A DNA stretch of 64,000 bases from Dehalococcoidia bacterium (GTDB lineage: Bacteria > Chloroflexota > Dehalococcoidia > SHYD01), in the NCBI GenBank assembly GCA_009692945.1, contig SHYD01000003.1, positions 15,459-79,458 of the forward strand. Reading direction: 5' to 3'. The notes under the pieces were generated by a model that saw only the letters and a program-made list of their open reading frames with translations, ran no database searches and had not been told where the DNA came from. Shown here piece by piece: positions 2,626 through 61,446 of this stretch (positions within the stretch are counted from its first letter, which is position 1; every line of letters starts with the position of its first letter). The position numbers were made by a program, and so were the translations under genes.

Positions 2626-3614
2626 GTGGTTGCTCAAGATATCGCCCGCATCAACGATCAGGTGAAAGCAGCCAGCGGGTTCGTGGAACCGCTGCTGGCC
2701 GAGGTGGGGAAGGTCATCGTCGGCCAGAAGGCGCTACTGGACCGTCTGCTGATCGCCCTGCTGTGCCACGGGCATATTCTCATCGAAGGCGTGCCAGGGC
2801 TGGCGAAGACGCTGACCGTCCGGACCCTTGCCGATGCCATCGACGCCCGGTTCCAGCGGGTGCAGTTCACCCCGGACCTGCTCCCCGCCGATCTGGTCGG
2901 TACGCTGGTGTACAACCCTCAATCCGGCAATTTCACCACCCGCAAGGGCCCTATTTTCGCCAACATCGTGCTGGCCGACGAGATCAACCGCGCCCCCGCC
3001 AAGGTCCAGAGCGCTTTGCTCGAGGCAATGCAGGAACGGCAGGTGACCATCGGCGACACCACCTTCCCGTTGGACGAACCATTCCTGGTGCTCGCAACCC
3101 AAAACCCCATTGAGCAGGAGGGCACCTACCACCTTCCCGAGGCGCAGGTGGACCGCTTCATGCTCAAGGTAAACGTGGGGTACCCGACTCGACAGGAGGA
3201 GCGCGTCATCATAGACCGCATGATGGCGGAGGAACCGCCCGCGGTGCGGCCGGTGGTAAACACCCAAGTGCTCAACCAGGCACGGCGCGTCGCCCGGTCG
3301 GTCCATATGGAGGACTCGCTGAAGGAGTACATCATCAGCGTGATCTTCGCCACACGGGAGCCCGAAGCGCACCGGCTGGCGGAATTGAAGCCACTGATCG
3401 CCTTCGGCGCGTCGCCCCGGGCGTCGATCTATTTGGCGCTGGCCGCGAAGGCGCATGCGTTCCTGCGGGGCCGCGGGTTTGTCGTTCCGGAAGACATCAA
3501 GGACGTGATCTACGATGTGCTGCGCCACCGGATCATCGTGACCTATGAAGCCGAGGCCGAGGACGTCACTTCCGAGACGATCATCCGGCGGGTGCTGCAG
3601 GAGGTGGAGGTCCC

Positions 3615-3618: not shown

Positions 3619-4622
<1,004 letters not shown>

Positions 4623-4627
4623 CGTCG

Positions 4628-5614
4628 ATGACCGCCAGAGTTCTGATGACGGTGATGTTGGTGACGCTGGCTGCATTGTTGCTCCCAGGCCCGACATCTG
4701 CCGAAGGGCCGGTAACCGTCGAGGCGGTGCTGAATCAGACGACGTTTCGTTTGGGCGACCCGATTGAGCTGCGCCTCGTCATCTCCTACCAGCGCGGGGT
4801 CACGATCGACTCCCTCGATCCGGCCGGCAAGCTGGGAGGATTGGAATTGCTCCAATTGAAGGAGCGGACCGCCGGCTGGCAGTTGGACGGGACGCAGACC
4901 CTCACTCTGGTTTACAGCGTGAGCGGTTATATTCCCGGACAGTACCAACTACCCCCCATCAGCGTCTCATTTTCGATGGCGGATGGACAGCCGGGAACAG
5001 CCGCAACCTCCGGGGGGGTTGTGGTGGAAGTTCAAAGCGTCCTGGGGAACGGCAACGAGCCGTTTCGAGACATCAAGCCACCGCTCCCCATCGAGCGTGA
5101 ACCGGTCGCGTGGTCTCGGAATGCCGCGGCCGCCGCGTTGGTGCTGGCAGTTTCCCTGCTGTTGGTGCTGGCGGGCCGGCGGTTGCTGCGGCGCAGATTT
5201 GTACCCGCCGCAGCCATCACCTTGAATGCCGAAGATGAGGCGGGCGCGCAGTTAGCCCGCCTTGGCGCCATGGCGCTGACCACCCCGGAGGAGTTCCAGG
5301 AGTATTATGGGGGCGTTTCGAGGTGCGTGAGGCGCTACCTGGACCGGCGCTATGAACTGTCCGCCGCCACCTCAACCTCGCGGGAGGTCCGGGTGGCGAT
5401 GGAGAGCCGCGGGCTCCATCCCTGGCAGGCACGTATCATCAGCGACCTGCTCGACGAGTGCGATGCGGCAAGATGGGCGCACTACCAGCCCGACATACCG
5501 AGGGCACGGCGGGCCGTCACCATCGCGTTCGAGATAGTCGACCTGGCGGGCGGCGGCCGTGCCGAGTTGAGCGAGCCGGTGGGCGGCGGGACGGCCCGCA
5601 AGGATGCGTTCTAA
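4628..5614 (+). CDS. BatD/DUF4381-like membrane protein
   Basis: Signal peptide (MTARVLMTVMLVTLAALLLPGPTSAEG), a beta-rich ectodomain, one TM helix (AAAALVLAVSLLLVLAG RRLLRRR) and a cytoplasmic tail ending ...DECDAARWAHYQPD. Positioned between DUF58 and the VWA genes. Confidence 0.55.
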   Translation: MTARVLMTVMLVTLAALLLPGPTSAEGPVTVEAVLNQTTFRLGDPIELRLVISYQRGVTIDSLDPAGKLGGLELLQLKERTAGWQLDGTQTLTLVYSVSGYIPGQYQLPPISVSFSMADGQPGTAATSGGVVVEVQSVLGNGNEPFRDIKPPLPIEREPVAWSRNAAAAALVLAVSLLLVLAGRRLLRRRFVPAAAITLNAEDEAGAQLARLGAMALTTPEEFQEYYGGVSRCVRRYLDRRYELSAATSTSREVRVAMESRGLHPWQARIISDLLDECDAARWAHYQPDIPRARRAVTIAFEIVDLAGGGRAELSEPVGGGTARKDAF

Positions 5615-12421: not shown

Positions 12422-13441
12422 CTAGGAGTTCGCTGAGCCGATCCATCGTCCGGCCCGGGCCCCCGGAACCGGCACCTGTTCCAGCACGTCCATCACAATC
12501 TTGTCGGCCGTGATGTCCTTCACCCGCGCGGTGGGGCTCACAATGATCCGGTGGGCCAGCGCGTAGGGCGCCAGGAACTTGATGTCGTCCGGCAAGACGA
12601 AATCCCGGCCCCGCAACAGCGCCAACGCCTGGGATGTCCGGAACAGGGCAAGGGAGCCGCGGGGCGACGCGCCCAGGTAAACGCCCTCGTGGTGGCGGGT
12701 CGCGTCGGCGATCGCGACGATATACTGCTTGACCAGCGCGTCGACATGGATCGCCTTGACAGATTCGTTCATCTTGAGGAGGTCCTCGACCGCCACCACT
12801 TCCTGGAGCGATTCGATGGGATGAACGTGCTGCTGACGGTCCAGAATGGTGACCTCGTCGGTGAGGGACGGGTAGCCAAGGTTCAGGCGCATGAGAAAGC
12901 GGTCGAGTTGGGCCTCGGGCAGCGGGAAGGTGCCCTCGTACTCGATGGGGTTCTGGGTGGCCAGCACCAAGAACGGCCGCGGCAGGGTGTGCAGTTCACC
13001 GTCGATGGTGACTTGGCGCTCTTCCATCGCCTCCAACAGCGACGACTGTGTCTTAGGCGTGGCGCGGTTGATCTCGTCAACCAGCACTATCTGCGCAAAG
13101 ATGGGGCCGGGCCGGAATTCGAAATCGGCTGTTTTTTGATTGAAGACCGACACGCCCGTGACATCACTGGGAAGCAGGTCCGGGGTGAACTGGAGACGCC
13201 GGAAGCTGCAACCCACCGAGCGCGCGATGCTCTTGGCGAGGGTCGTCTTGCCGACACCCGGCACGTCCTCGATGAGCAGGTGGCCTTGGCACAGCAAAGC
13301 GACTACCGCAAGTTCGACCTCGGCACGCTTGCCGACGATGACCTGCTCCACGTTCCCCACAATCTTGTCGACTACGCTGTTGGCCCCAGCTTCCAAAACG
13401 CGCTCCTTTCCCACCATCCGAGGAGCCGTAGATCTGTTCAA
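12422..13441 (-). CDS. MoxR family AAA+ ATPase
   Basis: Walker A DVPGVGKT, Walker [10 protein letters not shown], then [19 protein letters not shown]. Confidence 0.9.
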
Positions 13442-20986: not shown

Positions 20987-21042
20987 CCGGGCGCCGTCTG
21001 AGGCCGTTCGGCAGCGCGTTGCCGTCCAGGGGAGTACGATTT

Positions 21043-21180
21043 CAGACTCGGGGTCGGACACGGGGGTGCAGGGGGCAAAGCCATCCTGCCGGGGGACTGG
21101 GGGTGTTCCCCCAGAAACAAAAACTTCTCTTTTTTCTCGGTGGATGGGGCAAACGGCCGGGACGCAGCCCCCCAAGACTG
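21043..21180 (-). repeat. Interspersed repeat, diverged subfamily copy with clear terminal inverted repeats
   Basis: Ends are CAGACTCGGGG ... CCCCCCAAGACTG. The core is CCGGGGGACTGGGGGTGTTCCCCCAGAAACAAAAACTTCTCTTTTTT. Partner copy at 8415-8557. Confidence 0.75.
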
Positions 21181-21265
21181 AGTAGTTACCCAGGGGACGG
21201 CCCCGCGATCCGTCATCGCCGGGCCGGGTAGAATGAAGGTAGTCCATTCTGCATAGGAGGTTCCC

Positions 21266-40178: not shown

Positions 40179-40259
40179 GTGATGGCCCGAGGCTCAGGTA
40201 GCGCTATTGTAGGCAGCGGTGGCGGCCTGCGTCCAGCGGTGAGGGCGACGGTTTCGGTT

Positions 40260-40418
40260 CAGTGTCAGGGTTCGGGGCATATGAGCCACTCCCCCCGCCC
40301 AGGAAAAAAGGAAGAGAATTTCATGTGGGGGGCGCCCCCACTCCCCCGGCAGAGGGCTGCCGCCCTCGTGTACTCCCACTCCTGAGCCCCGCCCCCCTCA
40401 ACAGTGAATTCTGGCGGG
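40260..40418 (+). repeat. Interspersed ~160-bp repeat, full-length copy
   Basis: CAGTGTCAGGG...ATGAGCCACTCCCCCC...GGCAGAGGGCTGCCGCCCTCGTGTACTCCCACTCCTGAGCC...CTCAACAGTGAATTCTGGCGGG. Lies in a divergent intergenic region. Confidence 0.85.
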
Positions 40419-40473
40419 CGACGGCCCGCCGCGTCGCCCGTCTCCCCGCTGCTAGAATGGCCCTTAGGCCCGT

Positions 40474-42681: not shown

Positions 42682-43977
42682 TTACCCCGCGGCGCCCGGT
42701 CCCCTGAGCGGCGTTGCCGCCGGGATGGCCACCTTCATCGGGCTGACCCGCAGGCAGAAGCCCACCGCAATGAGGGCAATGAACCCCCCCGCCATGAAGG
42801 CGGGGGCGTAGTCGCCCGCTTCCACCCGGACCACGCCCGCCGCCCACGCCATGGCGGCTGCGCCGATCTGGTGGGTAAGGAACACCCACCCGGTGACCGT
42901 ACCCATCGACTGGCGGCCGAAGCGTTCAGCGATGAGCCCCATCAAGGGTGGGGCGGTGGCCAGCCAGTCGATCCCATAGAGCACGGCGAAGACCGCCAGC
43001 CCGTTAACGTCGCTGACGAAAGGGAGCACGAAGAGGGACAACGCTCGGAAGCCGAACACGGCAGCCAGCAGCACTCGTTTGTCCATTCGATCAGATAGCC
43101 AGCCGGCGCCGGCGGTGCCGAAGAAGTTCATCACTCCCATAATGCTGATGGCCGCGGTGGCCCCCATGGCCGATATGTTGTGGTCGATGGCGTGGGGAAT
43201 GAGGTGGGTGCCGATGAGGCCGCCCGAGGTGCCGCCGCAGACACTGAACGCCAGGGCCAGCAGCCAGAAATCGGGGCTGCGGACCACCTGCGACATCGGG
43301 GTCGCAAAGTTTTCCCGGCGGTCGCGCGCCCCTGCGGTTCCCCCAACTTCCTGTCCCAAGGGATTCCCATCGAGCCCGACGCCCACATCTTTCGGATCGT
43401 TGCGCATGAAAAGAAAGACCAAGGGCAGGACCACCGCCAGGAGGACGGCGCTCAATACCAGCACCGAGTCGCGCCAGGCGCCCACCAGAATCACCCACAT
43501 CAGGAGCGGCATGAATATCATCTGGCCGGCCGAGTAACCGGCGGTGAGCAGCCCGATGACCAACCCCCGTTTTGCGGAGAACCAACGTGCAGCGATGGTC
43601 GCCGAAAGCACGCCCGCGGCGCCGCCCATCCCGGCCCCCAGCACCACACCCCAGAGCAGGTAAAGGTGCCACACCGCGCTCATGAACAGCATGGCGGTCG
43701 TCCCGATGCCCACCAGGACCAAGCTTCCCAGCATGACCGCGCGCACCCCGCGCTGGTCCATGAGTTTGCCTACCAGCGGTCCCACTAATCCGAACATCAG
43801 CAGGTTCACCGACGCGGCCAGCGCGATGGACGCCCGGTCCCATTGGAACTCCTGTTCCAATGGGACCATCAGAATCGGGAAGGCCGCACGCGCTCCGGAC
43901 GACACTACAATGGCCAGGAACGCGACAACAACGATGACCCAGCCGTAGTAGATCCGCAGCGGTCCGAGGGTGATCAC
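42682..43977 (-). CDS. MFS transporter
   Basis: GTG start after GAAAGAGG. Twelve hydrophobic helices and the loop motif GPLVGKLMDQRGVR. Confidence 0.85.
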   Translation of the reverse strand: MITLGPLRIYYGWVIVVVAFLAIVVSSGARAAFPILMVPLEQEFQWDRASIALAASVNLLMFGLVGPLVGKLMDQRGVRAVMLGSLVLVGIGTTAMLFMSAVWHLYLLWGVVLGAGMGGAAGVLSATIAARWFSAKRGLVIGLLTAGYSAGQMIFMPLLMWVILVGAWRDSVLVLSAVLLAVVLPLVFLFMRNDPKDVGVGLDGNPLGQEVGGTAGARDRRENFATPMSQVVRSPDFWLLALAFSVCGGTSGGLIGTHLIPHAIDHNISAMGATAAISIMGVMNFFGTAGAGWLSDRMDKRVLLAAVFGFRALSLFVLPFVSDVNGLAVFAVLYGIDWLATAPPLMGLIAERFGRQSMGTVTGWVFLTHQIGAAAMAWAAGVVRVEAGDYAPAFMAGGFIALIAVGFCLRVSPMKVAIPAATPLRGPGAAG

Positions 43978-44018
43978 GGGGGCCTCTTTCGGGGTAGGCA
44001 GCTCGTCCGGCTGCTGTC

Positions 44019-44041
44019 GGTGCTATCGGTTTGATAGCACC
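44019..44041. promoter_or_regulatory. Perfect 9-bp dyad GGTGCTATC-N5-GATAGCACC (candidate operator)
   Basis: Seen directly. Lies 42-64 nt upstream of the MFS start in the divergent MFS/LLM intergenic region. Confidence 0.35.
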
Positions 44042-44070
44042 AGAGTACGGACCGCGCTCAAGACCGTCAA

Positions 44071-44162
44071 GAAAAAGAGGAGCATTCTCGGTGAGGGGCA
44101 CCCCCATTCCCCCGGCAGAGGGCTGCCGCCCTCGTGCACTCCCACTCCTGAGCCCGGCCGCC
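44071..44162 (+). repeat. Interspersed repeat, core-only copy truncated at both ends
   Basis: 91/92 identical to the reverse complement of the core of the 45571-45729 copy. Confidence 0.85.
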
Positions 44163-44334
44163 GAATCGGGGGCTCGCTGAGACAACATTTCACTCCCGAA
44201 GGGGTACAATGATGCCCGCGGGCCGGGTTAAGTTTGGTCTCTGCGTCCATTCAAATCAGGATCCCGATCCCTCTGAATCGGCGGTAATCTGTGAAATCTG
44301 TGGATCAACTCCGGTTTTCTCCGCGGAGGCGACG

Positions 44335-45498
44335 ATGCAGCAGTCGAGAATGAAGTTCGGCATCTTCCTGGCGCCCTTCCATCCATTGGGGGAAAATCCC
44401 ACGCTGGCCATCCATCGCGACCTTGAGTTGATCGAGCGGCTCGACGAACTGGGTTACGACGAGGCGTGGGTGGGCGAACACCACAGCGCAGGTTGGGAGA
44501 CTATCGCCTCCCCCGAGGTGTTCATTGCTGCGGCGTCGCAACGGACCCGGCACATCAAGCTGGGGACCGGCGTCGTCTCGCTGCCCTACCATCACCCATT
44601 GCTGGTCGCAGACCGGATGGTGCTGCTGGACCACCTTACCCGGGGCCGGGTGTTGTTCGGCGTTGGACCGGGCGCGCTGGTTTCCGACGCGATCATGATG
44701 GGGATCGACCCGCCCACCCAGCGGCCTCGCATGGAGGAGGCGATGGGCGTCATCTTGCGGCTGTTCACCGAACTCGACCCCGTCGACTATGAGTGCGAGT
44801 GGTTCACCCTGCGCGGCGCGCGTCTCCAGCTCCGGCCGTACACCCAGCCCCACATGCCCATCGCGGTGGCAGCGGTGCAGTCGCCTTCGGGCATGGTGAC
44901 GGCGGGTAAGTTCGGTGCGGGGGTGCTCACCTTCAGCGTCGCCAGGGGCGACGATGCCCCAAGCCTGCAGGAGTTCTGGGGCATCGCCGAGAAAACGGCG
45001 GCGGAACACGGGAAGACGATGGACCGGCGGGAGTGGCGGATCGTGCTGCCGTTGCACCTCGCGGAAACCCGCGCCGAGGCGATGGCCCAGATCCGGGAGC
45101 GGGCCGGCCGTTACCAGGCCGAGTACCGCCGCTCCACGCTGAGCCTCGAGTTGGACGTTGACGCGCCGCCGGAGCGGCTCGCCGAGGAGATGGTGGCGCG
45201 CGACGCCTGGTGCGTAGGCACGCCCGACGACCTGGTGGCCAAGATCCGTGCCTTCCAGGAAAGCAGCGGCGGCTTCGGCGGGCTGATGGTCCAGGCCATC
45301 GATTGGGCGGACCGCGAACACCTGCTGCACAGCTATGAACTGCTGGCCCGTTATGTGATGCCCCATTTCCAGGGAAGTCTCGATGGCTTGGTGGCGTCGC
45401 AGGCGACGGTGGCCGATCAATCCCGCCGGCTCAACGAACTGCGCCTCGCCTCGTTGGCCCGTGCGAGGTCGGATTACGAGCAGCGCCAGCGCGGCTGA
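44335..45498 (+). CDS. LLM-class flavin-dependent oxidoreductase (luciferase-like monooxygenase)
   Basis: ORF 44209..45498 trimmed to the ATG at 44335 after GGAGG. Begins MKFGIFLAPFHPLGENPTLAIHRDLELIERLDELGYDEAWVGEHHS. Confidence 0.85.
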   Translation: MQQSRMKFGIFLAPFHPLGENPTLAIHRDLELIERLDELGYDEAWVGEHHSAGWETIASPEVFIAAASQRTRHIKLGTGVVSLPYHHPLLVADRMVLLDHLTRGRVLFGVGPGALVSDAIMMGIDPPTQRPRMEEAMGVILRLFTELDPVDYECEWFTLRGARLQLRPYTQPHMPIAVAAVQSPSGMVTAGKFGAGVLTFSVARGDDAPSLQEFWGIAEKTAAEHGKTMDRREWRIVLPLHLAETRAEAMAQIRERAGRYQAEYRRSTLSLELDVDAPPERLAEEMVARDAWCVGTPDDLVAKIRAFQESSGGFGGLMVQAIDWADREHLLHSYELLARYVMPHFQGSLDGLVASQATVADQSRRLNELRLASLARARSDYEQRQRG

Positions 45499-45570
45499 CG
45501 CCTCTAAACTGCACAGAGGAAGAGTTAGAGACCGTGATCGCAGGTGTGCAACAGGGCGGCAGTCTTGGCT

Positions 45571-45729
45571 GGTAGGAGTTCACTGTTGAGGGGGCGGCCG
45601 GGCTCAGGAGTGGGAGTGCACGAGGACGGCAGCCCTCTGCCGGGGGAATGGGGGTGCCCCTCACCGAGAATGCTCCTCTTTTTCCCGGGTTGGGGGGAGT
45701 GGCTCATATCGCTCGAACCCCTGACACTG
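45571..45729 (-). repeat. Interspersed ~160-bp repeat, full-length copy
   Basis: GGTAGGAGTTCACTGTTGAGGGG...GAGGACGGCAGCCCTCTGCCGGGGG...GAGTGGCTCATATCGCTCGAACCCCTGACACTG. Confidence 0.85.
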
Positions 45730-45849
45730 CTGCGGGAAGGCACCCTTTTCATGACCCGGTGGTGTCCCCATGGTCATGGGCGTCTGAATAGATACCCTGG
45801 CTGCGTGGATGTGCTGTCCTTGGCGGAATTTGGTACGTGAGGTGATGCG

Positions 45850-46716
45850 ATGAAGATCGGAATCGGGCTGCCCTCAGGCCTCCCGGATGTCAGTGGGAAG
45901 CTCATATTAGACTGGGCGCGCCAGGCCGACGCGGGGCCCTTCTCCACCTTGGGTGTCATCGACCGCATCGTGTATCCCAACTACGAGCCGATGGTCACCA
46001 TGGCCGCCGCTGCCGCGGTCACAAGCCGGATCCGGTTCATGTCGGTCATCCTCATTGCGACGCTGCGGAACGCCGGCGTGCTGGCCAAAGAGGCGGCGAG
46101 CATCGATGCGCTGTCTGGCGGCCGCCTGACCCTCGGCCTCGCAGTTGGCCGGCGCCGCGACGACTTCCTGGCGGCGCCCGCAGAGATGAAGGGCCGCGGC
46201 AAGCATTTCGAGGACCAGCTTGCTCTGATGCGGCGGGTGTGGTCCGGCGAGCCGTTGTCGGAAGGGGTCGGCCCCGTGGGGCCGCCGCCGATCCAACCCG
46301 GCGGACCTCCCGTCTACATCGGTGGCACGGCCCCTGAGGCGCTGGAGCGGGCCGGGCGGCTGGCCGACGGTCTCATCGCCGGCGGTGGACGCGGTGCGCC
46401 GGGCATCGCCGAGCACTATGGGATCGTTCAACAGGCCTGGAAGGCGGCGGGCAAAACGGGCAAGCCCGGGCTCTCCGCCATCAAGTACTTCGGGCTGGGT
46501 CCCAACGCCCTCGAAAGGGGCGCCCCGGCGATACGACGCTATTATTCCAACGCGGGGATGGACCCGGAGGCAGCGATCCGGAGCGTTGCCTTCACGCCCG
46601 AAGAGGTCAGAACGGTGATGAAGGAATACGCAGCGGTGGGGATGGACGAACTGATCATGCTGCCCGCCATCCCGGACCTGGACCAGATCAGCCGGCTGGC
46701 GGACCTGGTGGGGTGA
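45850..46716 (+). CDS. LLM-class (probably F420-dependent) oxidoreductase
   Basis: MKIGIGLP...GPFSTLGVIDRIVYPNYEPMVTMAAAAAVTSRIRFMSVILIATLRN...SGGRLTLGLAVG. Confidence 0.8.
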   Translation: MKIGIGLPSGLPDVSGKLILDWARQADAGPFSTLGVIDRIVYPNYEPMVTMAAAAAVTSRIRFMSVILIATLRNAGVLAKEAASIDALSGGRLTLGLAVGRRRDDFLAAPAEMKGRGKHFEDQLALMRRVWSGEPLSEGVGPVGPPPIQPGGPPVYIGGTAPEALERAGRLADGLIAGGGRGAPGIAEHYGIVQQAWKAAGKTGKPGLSAIKYFGLGPNALERGAPAIRRYYSNAGMDPEAAIRSVAFTPEEVRTVMKEYAAVGMDELIMLPAIPDLDQISRLADLVG

Positions 46717-46749
46717 CACCGGCAGCCAGGACTGCTGCTTTCGGCGCGT

Positions 46750-47063
46750 TTGAAGCAGGCGTGCAGAGGGCGGCGACCCTTGCCGGGGGTTTTGGGGGGT
46801 GTCCCCATAGGAGTGGGCACCTTTTGAATTCGTGCCTGGATGAGGGCTTTGGGGCGGGGGTGTGCAGAGGGGGCGGAGCCCCTTCTGCCGGGGTGTGGGG
46901 TGTCCCCACACACAAACGAAATGGGCGGGTGGGCGGGAAGTACTGCCTTGGAGGTTGTCCGAGGAGAAACCCGCCCACTCCTAAGGGGTAGCCCCCACAT
47001 AGAATTCTCCTCTTTTTTCCTGGGTTGGAGGGAGTGGCTCATACCCCCGAACCGCTGACACTG
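46750..47063 (-). repeat. Composite of three degenerate repeat cores in tandem
   Basis: Cores at about 46757-46815, 46850-46915 and 46985-47063. The last carries the intact 5' terminus ...GAGTGGCTCATACCCCCGAACCGCTGACACTG. Confidence 0.7.
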
Positions 47064-47168
47064 AAAAGATACCAAGAGTGCCGATGTTGGCAGCTCTTTG
47101 CCGGACTCGGCTATCATTGATTTATGGGTTGATGATCGAGCCTGGCTGAGGGCACAGAGGAGGTTGGG

Positions 47169-48205: not shown

Positions 48206-48964
48206 TTATCCCCACCATATCGTGGGTGCGTCCACCACGATACCGGCGTCGCGCAGGTCTGCCAGGAAGTCGGCGAGCTTCCCGCTTTCGGGCGGCAAAC
48301 GCAGATGGTCTTCGAAACGGTCGTCTTCATGAACGAATTCTATCGTTAACCAGAGCGCCGCTTTGCTGTCGCTCGTGCTTGGCTCGATCGACACGGATCG
48401 GATCGTGCCAAGCACGGACGTCTCCTTCGTTGCCCAGCGCGGCCCGTAATTAACCCGGCTACCAGGGGACCGGATGCCTCGCACCCGGTCATAGTTGACA
48501 ACGAACGTGAACTCCGCGGTGATCTGTCCAGGAGTTAGGACTTGGATCGCGGATGCCTTCAAGAAACGGGCGAGGTCAGTGTCCCTCAAGTCACGATCCC
48601 CGGTGATCAGTGTGTCTGCGTCGCTTGCGATTGCGGTTTCGAGCACCACATCATCTTTGGGGTCTCGGCAGAGGTGGATCAACCCGGGAGTTGGGAAGAT
48701 GGCTGCGGACCGCTGCACTCGCGTCACGAAACCGTGGATTTCCGCAAGCGTCAGGCGGGACCGCACCCGAATCTTGGGGCGAAGCAGCACGTCTTCCAAC
48801 TCGGCCAACAGGGGCTTGCTGGCAACGATTTCGATTTGCCCCAATCCCCAGTAGTGTATGAGGCGGGCAGGCGGGCCGTTGCGATTCAGGAGCGCAGCGA
48901 CCCAGACGTTGGTGTCAACGACGGCTCGCCGCACTCTTCCGAACCTCCTGGACCGCCTGGGCAA
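48206..48964 (-). CDS. PIN-domain toxin (TIGR00305-like) fused to a ~105-aa C-terminal extension of unknown function
   Basis: AVVDTNVWVAALL...LLAELEDVL...DPKDDVVLETAIASDADTLITGDRDL, then an uninterrupted extra ~105 aa. GC is only about 55-60%. Confidence 0.8.
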   Translation of the reverse strand: MPRRSRRFGRVRRAVVDTNVWVAALLNRNGPPARLIHYWGLGQIEIVASKPLLAELEDVLLRPKIRVRSRLTLAEIHGFVTRVQRSAAIFPTPGLIHLCRDPKDDVVLETAIASDADTLITGDRDLRDTDLARFLKASAIQVLTPGQITAEFTFVVNYDRVRGIRSPGSRVNYGPRWATKETSVLGTIRSVSIEPSTSDSKAALWLTIEFVHEDDRFEDHLRLPPESGKLADFLADLRDAGIVVDAPTIWWG

Positions 48965-51005: not shown

Positions 51006-51160
51006 GTAAGAGTTCACGATTGAGGGTACCATCGGGCTCAGGAGCGGGAGTGCACGAGGGCGGCAGCCCTCTGCCGGGGGTGTGGGGGTGGCCCCCACAG
51101 AGAATTCTCCTCTTTTTATGGGGTGGGGGGCATGGTTCATGCGGCCGGCCCCTGATTCTG
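51006..51160 (-). repeat. Interspersed ~160-bp repeat, full-length copy (an extra core fragment follows at ~51165-51200)
   Basis: GTAAGAGTTCACGATTGAGGG...GAGGGCGGCAGCCCTCTGCCGGGGGTGTGGGGGTGGCCCCCACAGAGAATTCTCCTCTTTTTATGGGG...CCTGATTCTG. Confidence 0.8.
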
Positions 51161-51301
51161 AACTCATACGTGCGTGAGGGCGGAAGCCCTCCCATACTCT
51201 GAGAGGGCAATCTTCGACTGACGGCGTCTGCCATCATGCAATCTGAAGACCGATCTCGAACCCACCGGCGTAACCGTCGCCTTCTTTCGTCACCGCCACC
51301 G

Positions 51302-52874: not shown

Positions 52875-52966
52875 CCTTTACAACACCCTCGGATGCGGCG
52901 GGGCAGGGCCTACTTCGCCATCCCTAAAGAGTTGCCAACCTCTTGGCAACCCTACACGGCCGACTT

Positions 52967-53019
52967 CGTGCACTCCCACTCCCGAGCTCGGCCGCCCCTC
53001 AACAGTGAATTCTGGCGGG
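52967..53019 (+). repeat. Interspersed repeat, solo 3' part
   Basis: CGTGCACTCCCACTCCCGAGCTCGGCCGCCCCTCAACAGTGAATTCTGGCGGG. Confidence 0.75.
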
Positions 53020-53112
53020 AGCTGCCGGTAGCTTGCGGACGGCAACGGTACCCGCTAAGCTAGGGGCGTTTTCCGGGTAGCACGCTGCCCGATCGCGTGA
53101 AAGGGAGCCACG

Positions 53113-55105: not shown

Positions 55106-55157
55106 CCAGGACCGCATCTGCGAAGCAACCAGCCGTTCCAAACCCAGTATCTATAAG

Positions 55158-55315
55158 CAGTGTCAGGGGTTCGTGGGATGAAAGCCACTCCCCCCACCCG
55201 AGGGAAAATAGGGAGAATTATCTGTGGGGGCACCCCCACTTCCCCGGCAGAGGGCTGCCGCCCTCCTGCACTCCCACCCCCGAGCCCGGCCGCCCCTGCA
55301 CAGTGAATTCTTACC
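55158..55315 (+). repeat. Interspersed ~160-bp repeat, full-length copy
   Basis: CAGTGTCAGGGGTTCGTGGGATGAAAGCCACTCCCCCCACCC...GTGGGGGCACCCCCAC...GGCAGAGGGCTGCCGCCCTC...CACAGTGAATTCTTACC. Confidence 0.85.
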
Positions 55316-61383: not shown

Positions 61384-61432
61384 CTGCACCCCCACTCGTG
61401 AGCCCGCCGCCCCTCAACAGTGAATTCTTACC
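61384..61432 (+). repeat. Interspersed repeat, solo 3' part
   Basis: CTGCACCCCCACTCGTGAGCCCGCCGCCCCTCAACAGTGAATTCTTACC. Confidence 0.75.
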
Positions 61433-61446
61433 CGGCGCCGCTGCCG

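Follow-up and report, generated by a model that had tools for sequence, protein, structure and literature searches.

Within the 64,000-nucleotide stretch of a Dehalococcoidia contig analyzed here (hereafter, the window), the gene for a luciferase-like (LLM class) flavin monooxygenase, LLM1, is bracketed by two nearly identical inverted sequences. We think it probable that this near-identity reflects a recent, non-reciprocal copying of the interior of a miniature transposon (MITE) that lies downstream of LLM1 into the spacer upstream of the gene. The bracketed-gene picture would then be a by-product of MITE activity and local sequence copying, rather than a mobile cassette or a designed switch. 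Concerted evolution among neighboring or dispersed repeats is well known from rRNA operons, tuf genes, insertion sequences, and REP copies. The phenomenon itself, concerted evolution of adjoining repeat copies, is ordinary, and the outcome of the analysis is a clean negative and a clarification. What is novel is the repeat family alone, and the core in its interior recurs in free units across the Chloroflexota.

A repeat search of the window identified the two arms at 44071-44162 (+ strand) and 45593-45684 (- strand). Each is 92 nt long, and they are 99% complementary and 1430 nt apart. The arms match at 91 of 92 positions, and their sole mismatch sets the family consensus C at 44129 against a derived T at 45626 (in element orientation). 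Identity drops at once to background outside both edges of the 92-nt tract. These data confirm the description in an earlier note, which had reported near-identical inverted copies on either side of LLM1 that differ by one mismatch. The same note had placed only LLM1 and its leader in the enclosed segment, at 44163-45570; this is correct for the gene content, although the segment in fact spans 44163-45592 and also includes 94 nt past the LLM1 stop codon.

LLM1 itself occupies 44335-45498 (+ strand) and matches the Pfam family PF00296 (Bac_luciferase) with an E-value of 8e-51. Its leader/promoter block (44163-44334, + strand) is conserved in relatives and begins exactly at the end of the upstream arm; it contains the hexamer TACAAT at 44205-44210 and the repeat ATCTGTG-AA-ATCTGTG at 44287-44305. 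On the other side of the upstream arm, the MFS-proximal part of the divergent intergenic region (43978-44070), which includes the palindrome TGCTATCGGTTTGATAGCA at 44021-44039, is conserved in the closest relative as far as the arm's left edge. Domain searches identify the left neighbor as an MFS transporter gene (42682-43977, - strand) and the right neighbor as a second luciferase-like oxidoreductase gene, LLM2 (45850-46716, + strand). A scan of 43900-45900 for promoter and terminator consensus sequences returned no sites, and a search for tRNA and tmRNA genes returned none.

We compared the arms with the core-bearing family copies at 40251-40415, 51006-51169, and 55147-55314 in the window and with three copies from a Lake Baikal metagenome-assembled genome (MAG). 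The full-core copies compared from the source genome number five, all within the window. Every pairing other than that of the two arms, whether between two of these copies or between a copy and an arm, matched at 76-85 of about 94 positions. The remaining family members do differ from one another at many positions, as the earlier note had stated. Given a background divergence of 8-15%, the probability of finding at most one mismatch in 92 positions is 4e-3 to 6e-6. Four private states (AGCATT, CGG, GTGAGGGG, and CCCCCATT) are common to both arms and absent from the other copies compared, and no third copy with the four private variants was found in the window or in the fetched loci. Likewise, the 28-mer GGGGCACCCCCATTCCCCCGGCAGAGGG occurs without a mismatch at the two arm sites only within the window, and none is expected from shuffled sequences; the private variant that the earlier note had attributed to the pair is thus real. 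The arms therefore have the hallmarks of a gene-conversion tract, namely copies that lie near one another (1430 nt), identity far above the family background, and sharp borders.

The repeat family to which the arms belong is a MITE, a miniature non-autonomous transposon. A profile built from four long copies and searched with nhmmer found 12 members in the 64-kb window, all of them intergenic. The element is abundant in its source genome, that of an uncultured groundwater Chloroflexota. The iterated profile also found members in other Chloroflexota contigs, and three more copies are present in a non-syntenic contig of the Lake Baikal MAG. Full-length copies are 156-168 bp long, and the family is short, non-coding, multi-copy, and dispersed. 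We read the element ends in seven full-length copies: four in the window, the diverged copy at 21034-21189, and two in another locus (L017). Imperfect terminal inverted repeats of ~20 bp, GTAWGAGTTCA(G/C)..., are found at the 5' end and as the reverse complement of the 3' end; the end sequence can also be written GTAWGAGTTCAGTGTCAGGGG. The 8-mers that directly flank the ends match at 8/8 positions in four of the seven copies (GGGCGACG, TCCCCTGG, GAGACGGC, and CCGCCGGC), at 7/8 in one more, and at 6/8 in another, such that six of the seven match overall. A control with shifted offsets gave a poorer match in five of six copies, the exception being the copy with 6/8. Since terminal inverted repeats and 8-bp target-site duplications are a signature of transposition, these results identify the family as a MITE.

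Among the full-length copies in the window, the one at 40251-40415 (+ strand) has an exact 8-bp duplication, GGGCGACG, at 40243-40250 and 40416-40423. The flanking 8-mers of the copy at 51006-51169 (- strand) match at 6/8 positions, those of the copy at 55147-55314 (+ strand) match at 7/8 (CAAACCCA and CGAACCCA), and the diverged copy at 21034-21189 (- strand) again has an exact 8-bp duplication (CCAGGGGA, + strand). Truncated copies are found at 46985-47073, 52959-53021, and 61385-61434. The first of these, a MITE 5' half, belongs to a cluster of partial members in the spacer between LLM2 and the transporter gene that follows it (46752-47073, - strand), together with two core-only units at 46752-46810 and 46858-46915.

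Bacterial MITEs are non-autonomous derivatives of insertion sequences. The family resembles them in being short and non-coding, in having many scattered intergenic copies with imperfect terminal inverted repeats and a fixed 8-bp duplication, and in the presence of truncated and nested copies. It differs in that the core of the element also stands alone without transposon ends in several Chloroflexota lineages, which is atypical of an element derived from an insertion sequence by deletion alone. The published description of element ends offers one lead to a parent, IS66: elements of that type are described (PMC11946415, citing TnCentral) as having terminal inverted repeats of 20-30 bp that start with GTAAGCG, along with 8-bp direct repeats. 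In the MITE, the ends start with GTAWGAG (GTAA or GTAT), are ~20 bp long, and are accompanied by 8-bp duplications. IS66 is a possible parent, the agreement being confined to the opening 4-5 bases and the length of the duplication. No IS66-type transposase was found in the open reading frames (ORFs) tested at 38.8-57 kb.

Searches of the whole window against Rfam gave no match at the gathering threshold and nothing relevant at E<=1 for 43950-45900, a plasmid collection contained no match to the MITE, and a literature search on the core sequences yielded nothing relevant. Based on Rfam, the plasmid collection, and the searchable literature, the family appears to be undescribed. The ends, the 8-bp duplication, and the conserved core now define it, and its hosts are uncultured groundwater and lake Chloroflexota. 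This definition should aid annotation, help to explain why contigs break in such MAGs, and make the remodeling of promoter regions easier to spot. A structured-RNA reading of the element was dropped, given the lack of an Rfam family, a fold at the level of shuffled sequence, and essentially no covariation: the element RNA folded no more stably than shuffled sequence on either strand (z-scores of +0.8 and -0.3), and an alignment fold of 23 cores gave five weak pairs, -1.6 kcal/mol, and a covariation term of 0.06.

The core lies in the middle of the MITE and comprises about 60-70 nt (GGGGACACCCC...CCCCGGCAGAGGGCTGCCGCCCTCTGCACTCCC). Free cores that lack transposon ends are found in the two core-only units of the LLM2-transporter spacer, in a relative of the source genome (L019), in a Ktedonobacteraceae MAG, and in other contigs. 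A scan of a genome collection with a 19-mer from the core returned 17 loci, of which those in Chloroflexota alone are genuine members of the family. REP, BIME, and REPIN elements are mobilized by RAYT transposases. The free cores resemble such elements in that they are short, GC-rich, and partly palindromic (GGGGACACCCC; GGCAGAGGGCTGCC), and in that they are intergenic and sometimes clustered at a spacing of about 100-200 nt. They differ in that no RAYT gene was seen and in that the element folds no better than shuffled sequence; moreover, the full-length elements have terminal inverted repeats and duplications, which REPs do not.

Homologous loci from other assemblies allowed us to examine the history of the region. 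The same strain has been assembled a second time (a 12,455-nt contig from ERZ1305449), with no change in the encoded proteins or in the distances between genes over either arm. A Logan contig from another run (L022) matches 45768-46820 with 99.9% identity and thereby independently confirms 45768-45832. The arrangement is thus not peculiar to one assembly. In the closest relative, L018, LLM1 is 98% identical at the amino acid level, and nucleotide identity is 87-91%; L023 is an independent assembly of this relative and is 99.7% identical to L018. A metagenome scan with LLM1 added L023, a relative at 80% with short flanks (L024), and many distant homologs. The gene order in L018 is the same as in the window, MFS (-), LLM1 (+), LLM2 (+), and a sulfur transporter, with zero family copies. 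Alignment of L018 and L023 to the window extends to 44074 and resumes at 44163, and the 65 nt that lie between these points in the relative have no similarity to the family. Neither the profile nor a Smith-Waterman comparison against shuffled sequences supported this 65-nt spacer as a decayed family copy.

On the other side of LLM1, L018 and L023 are collinear with the window across the 45508/45833 junction and lack the 324-bp block at 45509-45832, which consists of a MITE plus about 150 nt; the LLM1-LLM2 gap is 27 nt in L018, compared with 351 nt in the window. The block also contains degenerate core fragments at 45543-45562 and 45758-45781. By eye, the window's LLM1-LLM2 spacer without its MITE could possibly be a diverged core-only unit, and its pairwise comparison with L019 was not significant (p 0.52). 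Every unit of the partial-member cluster between LLM2 and the transporter gene is missing from L018 as well. Relative to the closest relative, three spacers around both LLM genes have thus been expanded or rewritten. Searches for an empty site at the copy at 51006, using the adjoining dioxygenase protein, found no close relative, and a search with the Rieske protein found one truncated relative that ends short of the intergenic region.

Two further relatives differ in their repeat content. L021 (80% amino acid identity) is repeat-free and has a 40-nt LLM1-LLM2 spacer. In L019 (90% amino acid identity), the two spacers that hold the arms in the window contain diverged family cores in the same inverted layout, with the upstream core on the + strand (E 1e-9) and the downstream core on the - strand (E 3e-5); these two cores are very unlike each other. 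The earlier note had raised a fixed arrangement with diverged flanks in relatives as evidence against a recent event, and L019 provides this in part, in the form of its diverged inverted cores around LLM1. The core is conserved from the source lineage to Ktedonobacteraceae and other Chloroflexota MAGs, and it might be a functional cis-element (e.g., a putative protein-binding site) whose paired inverted placement around LLM1 in the window and L019 has been selected. If so, the paired cores would not be transposon junk; they could act on the LLM1 promoter region by looping or insulating it, or permit a RecA-dependent flip of LLM1 that uncouples LLM2. We consider such selection very unlikely.

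These relatives also bear on gene-cassette capture, one of the origins proposed in the earlier note, in which the repeats would have carried LLM1 into the locus as a composite transposon. The picture of one gene bracketed by inverted mobile-element sequence suggests such an event only superficially. LLM1 lies directly 5' of LLM2 in three relatives, two of which also have the MFS gene upstream and two of which are repeat-free. In particular, LLM1 adjoins LLM2 in the same orientation in the repeat-free L018/L023 and L021, and the MFS gene lies upstream in L018. Furthermore, the upstream arm is devoid of element ends, the outer (5') end is missing from the downstream copy, and no duplication surrounds the composite. 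Given that an arm without transposon ends cannot serve as one side of a composite transposon, and that the gene is in place in repeat-free relatives, cassette capture is refuted, and we see practically no chance that it is correct. Judging from these syntenic comparisons, LLM1 has long resided at the locus and predates the repeats.

The anatomy of the two arms suggests how the pair arose. The upstream arm corresponds to profile positions 50-142 only, comprising the A-rich linker and the conserved core, plus 19 nt from the beginning of the 3' module. Considered as a MITE insertion, it lacks both the element ends (terminal inverted repeats) and a target-site duplication, and its flanks are the conserved promoter blocks. 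It does include ACTCCTGAGCCCGGCCGCC, a MITE-specific sequence that opens the 3' module and is missing from free core-only units. This indicates that the upstream arm derives from the MITE rather than the reverse, and hence that the direction of copying was from the downstream MITE to the upstream site. The downstream arm is the corresponding inner part of the adjoining MITE, a nearly full-length copy at 45572-45729 (- strand) that has the canonical 3' end GTAGGAGTTCACTG (+ strand, at 45572). This copy lacks ~10 nt at its 5' terminus, and its flanking 8-mers match at 0/8 positions; since no target duplication is recognizable, its history must be more complex than a single insertion.

Gene conversion between flanking copies, which the earlier note had listed among the possible origins, is the best-supported reading of these observations given the sharp-edged 91/92 tract, the private states, and the absence of element ends upstream. 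The MITE family transposes, and a nearly complete, 5'-eroded copy sits in the LLM1-LLM2 spacer, within sequence that L018 lacks. The upstream arm is not a product of transposition: both of its borders fall within the element, and it replaces a 65-bp spacer between conserved promoter blocks. We infer that its 92 nt were copied non-reciprocally and in inverted orientation over a distance of 1.4 kb, with the downstream MITE as donor and the upstream spacer as recipient. The copying would be recent, with one substitution since then, in the donor copy.

Two routes to such a copy can be envisioned. In one, an older, diverged core-only unit, like the one at that position in L019, would have been converted by the downstream MITE. 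In the other, templated break repair or template switching would have made the copy without prior homology, as the state of L018 would suggest. A family unit that could have been the recipient at the upstream site is found in L019 (E 1e-9) and in neither L018 nor L021. The lack of a family remnant at this site in L018 implies either that the homology was lost there or that the copy was made without homology. Thus, the pair resembles intrachromosomal gene conversion in that near copies are far more alike than the family, the tract is sharp, and the ends were not transferred, and it differs in that the closest relative has no homologous recipient at the upstream site.

It is unlikely that the two arms instead represent two independent recent hops from one very young master, with later deletions that trimmed the upstream copy at both ends and the downstream copy at its 5' end. 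The family does transpose, as the 8-bp duplications attest, truncated copies are common in the window, and the downstream copy is already 5'-eroded. However, such a history needs more events, an insertion and at least two deletions, all within the time of one substitution, and the deletions must take both ends of the upstream copy and the whole 65-nt ancestral spacer while sparing both conserved blocks. The lack of a third copy with the private variants in the window or in the fetched loci also argues against a common master. An identical copy elsewhere in the source genome is possible, the comparison having covered five full-core copies of this genome.

We also considered whether truly divergent copies could have been homogenized during assembly, through bubble popping in the de Bruijn graph across the canonical k-mers of inverted copies. 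The window comes from an 88,954-nt contig of a short-read MAG, and other assemblies of the population break at family repeats, with L022 ending at 45768 and 46820. Against this, one arm mismatch survived assembly, the arms are shorter than typical reads and hence can be spanned, the second assembly has identical gene spacing over both arms, and the borders of the patch are clean relative to the relative's sequence. An assembly artefact is therefore quite improbable, and local copying of the MITE interior is the more attractive explanation for the near-identity of the arms.

The earlier note had further suggested that the arms form an inversion substrate. The structure bears this out, with 92 bp of inverted identity 1.4 kb apart, whereas no sign of its use was found. 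A 92-bp inverted repeat at this distance is a plausible substrate for RecA-dependent inversion, and an inversion of LLM1 together with its promoter could be supported. This potential looks like an incidental by-product rather than a designed switch, since no inverted form of LLM1 is present among the assembled contigs, a Pfam search of 20 ORFs at 38.8-57 kb found no recombinase, integrase, transposase, or invertase domain, and the L019 cores have not been kept alike.

That the repeats are maintained so that LLM1 and its promoter can flip, coupling or uncoupling LLM2 transcription as a form of phase variation, is extremely unlikely. A substrate of perfect length exists and the enclosed DNA has its own conserved promoter block; moreover, the LLM1-LLM2 gap of 27-40 nt in repeat-free relatives is operon-like, and L019 too has inverted family cores on each side of LLM1. 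Those cores are strongly diverged, however, and hence have not been kept as a substrate for recombination. LLM1 points the same way in the window, the second assembly, L018, L023, L019, and L021, so that a single orientation is seen throughout all of the assembled contigs and relatives. Known invertible switches use short, specific sites and a dedicated recombinase. The locus resembles Hin/Gin/Fim-type switches in that a gene and its promoter lie between inverted repeats, and it differs in that there is no adjacent recombinase, in that the repeats are 92 bp of transposon interior rather than short recombinase sites, and in that the alternative orientation was not observed here in assembled contigs. 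If the inverted repeat does recombine, the locus would be a simple natural example of transposon-seeded gene inversion. A flip would move LLM1 along with the conserved promoter block at 44163-44334 and part LLM2 from it, and the junction of the inverted form would read 44040-44070, followed by the arm and CCCTCAACAGTGAACTCC.

The spacer between LLM2, the second of the two luciferase-like oxidoreductase genes, and the neighbouring sulphur-transporter gene measures 426 nt in the window (46718-47143) versus 107 nt in L018 (4778-4884), the closest relative. The additional sequence in the window's spacer contains three partial members of the MITE family. Therefore, all three of the spacers flanking LLM1 and LLM2 have been altered by this family, which expanded or rewrote each of them after the split from L018. 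Further along the window, a 252-aa open reading frame with a PIN_3 domain (E 2.5e-23) at 48206-48964 on the minus strand is flanked by sulphur-transport genes and a methylmalonyl-CoA mutase gene, and may encode a toxin-like nuclease.

The LLM1 leader (44163-44334) is strongly conserved in L018 and partially conserved in the more distant relative L019. It includes a -10-like TACAAT at 44205-44210 and, a short way upstream of the start codon, ATCTGTGAAATCTGTGGAT, a tandem ATCTGTG repeat at 44287-44305. The leader looks like a promoter together with an operator or leader element for some regulator. The divergent intergenic region holds, in its half nearer the MFS gene, a perfect palindrome at 44021-44039, TGCTATC-GGTTT-GATAGCA, that is also kept in L018; it resembles an operator at which a dimeric repressor would control the MFS gene.

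An independent assembly from the same population yielded L022 (Logan SRR8561391), a contig that corresponds to window positions 45768-46820. Both of its ends fall within GGTGTCCCCAT-type core fragments, which shows that the MITE family breaks up short-read assemblies of these organisms.

Outside the window, the Lake Baikal contig L017 (Dehalococcoidia bacterium Baikal-deep-G111), which is non-syntenic with the window, carries three MITE copies within 8 kb (782-941, 3075-3217 and 4209-4367). These copies are 81-89% identical to the window copies, the same level that is found among the window copies themselves, and one of the three belongs to the sub-family of the window copy at 51006-51169, end sequence included. 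Given this equal identity and shared sub-family, there are two readings of the MITE family: it is old and its masters have been conserved, or it has been transferred between lineages.

The interior core is also found by itself. Core-only units of approximately 55-70 nt without MITE ends are present in L003, L006, L007, L010 and L015, all from the Ktedonobacteraceae MAG SMAG_U6176, and in L001 and L069 (at 5255-5325 in the latter). Often several of them lie on one short contig, irregularly spaced at intervals of approximately 50-200 nt and close to the contig ends. The core thus has a far wider distribution among Chloroflexota than the MITE in which it is embedded.

Within the window, GTAAGAGTTCACATTTGAGGAG at 2328-2350 matches the MITE terminal repeat but stands alone; the profile search missed it, and it may be the lone end remaining from an old copy. 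The segments 2753-3541 and 12538-13302, approximately 9-10 kb apart, match each other in inverted orientation at three collinear stretches, each 59-93 nt long with 71-80% complementarity. The most likely explanation is a pair of paralogous genes that lie on opposite strands and have diverged; they are unrelated to the MITE.
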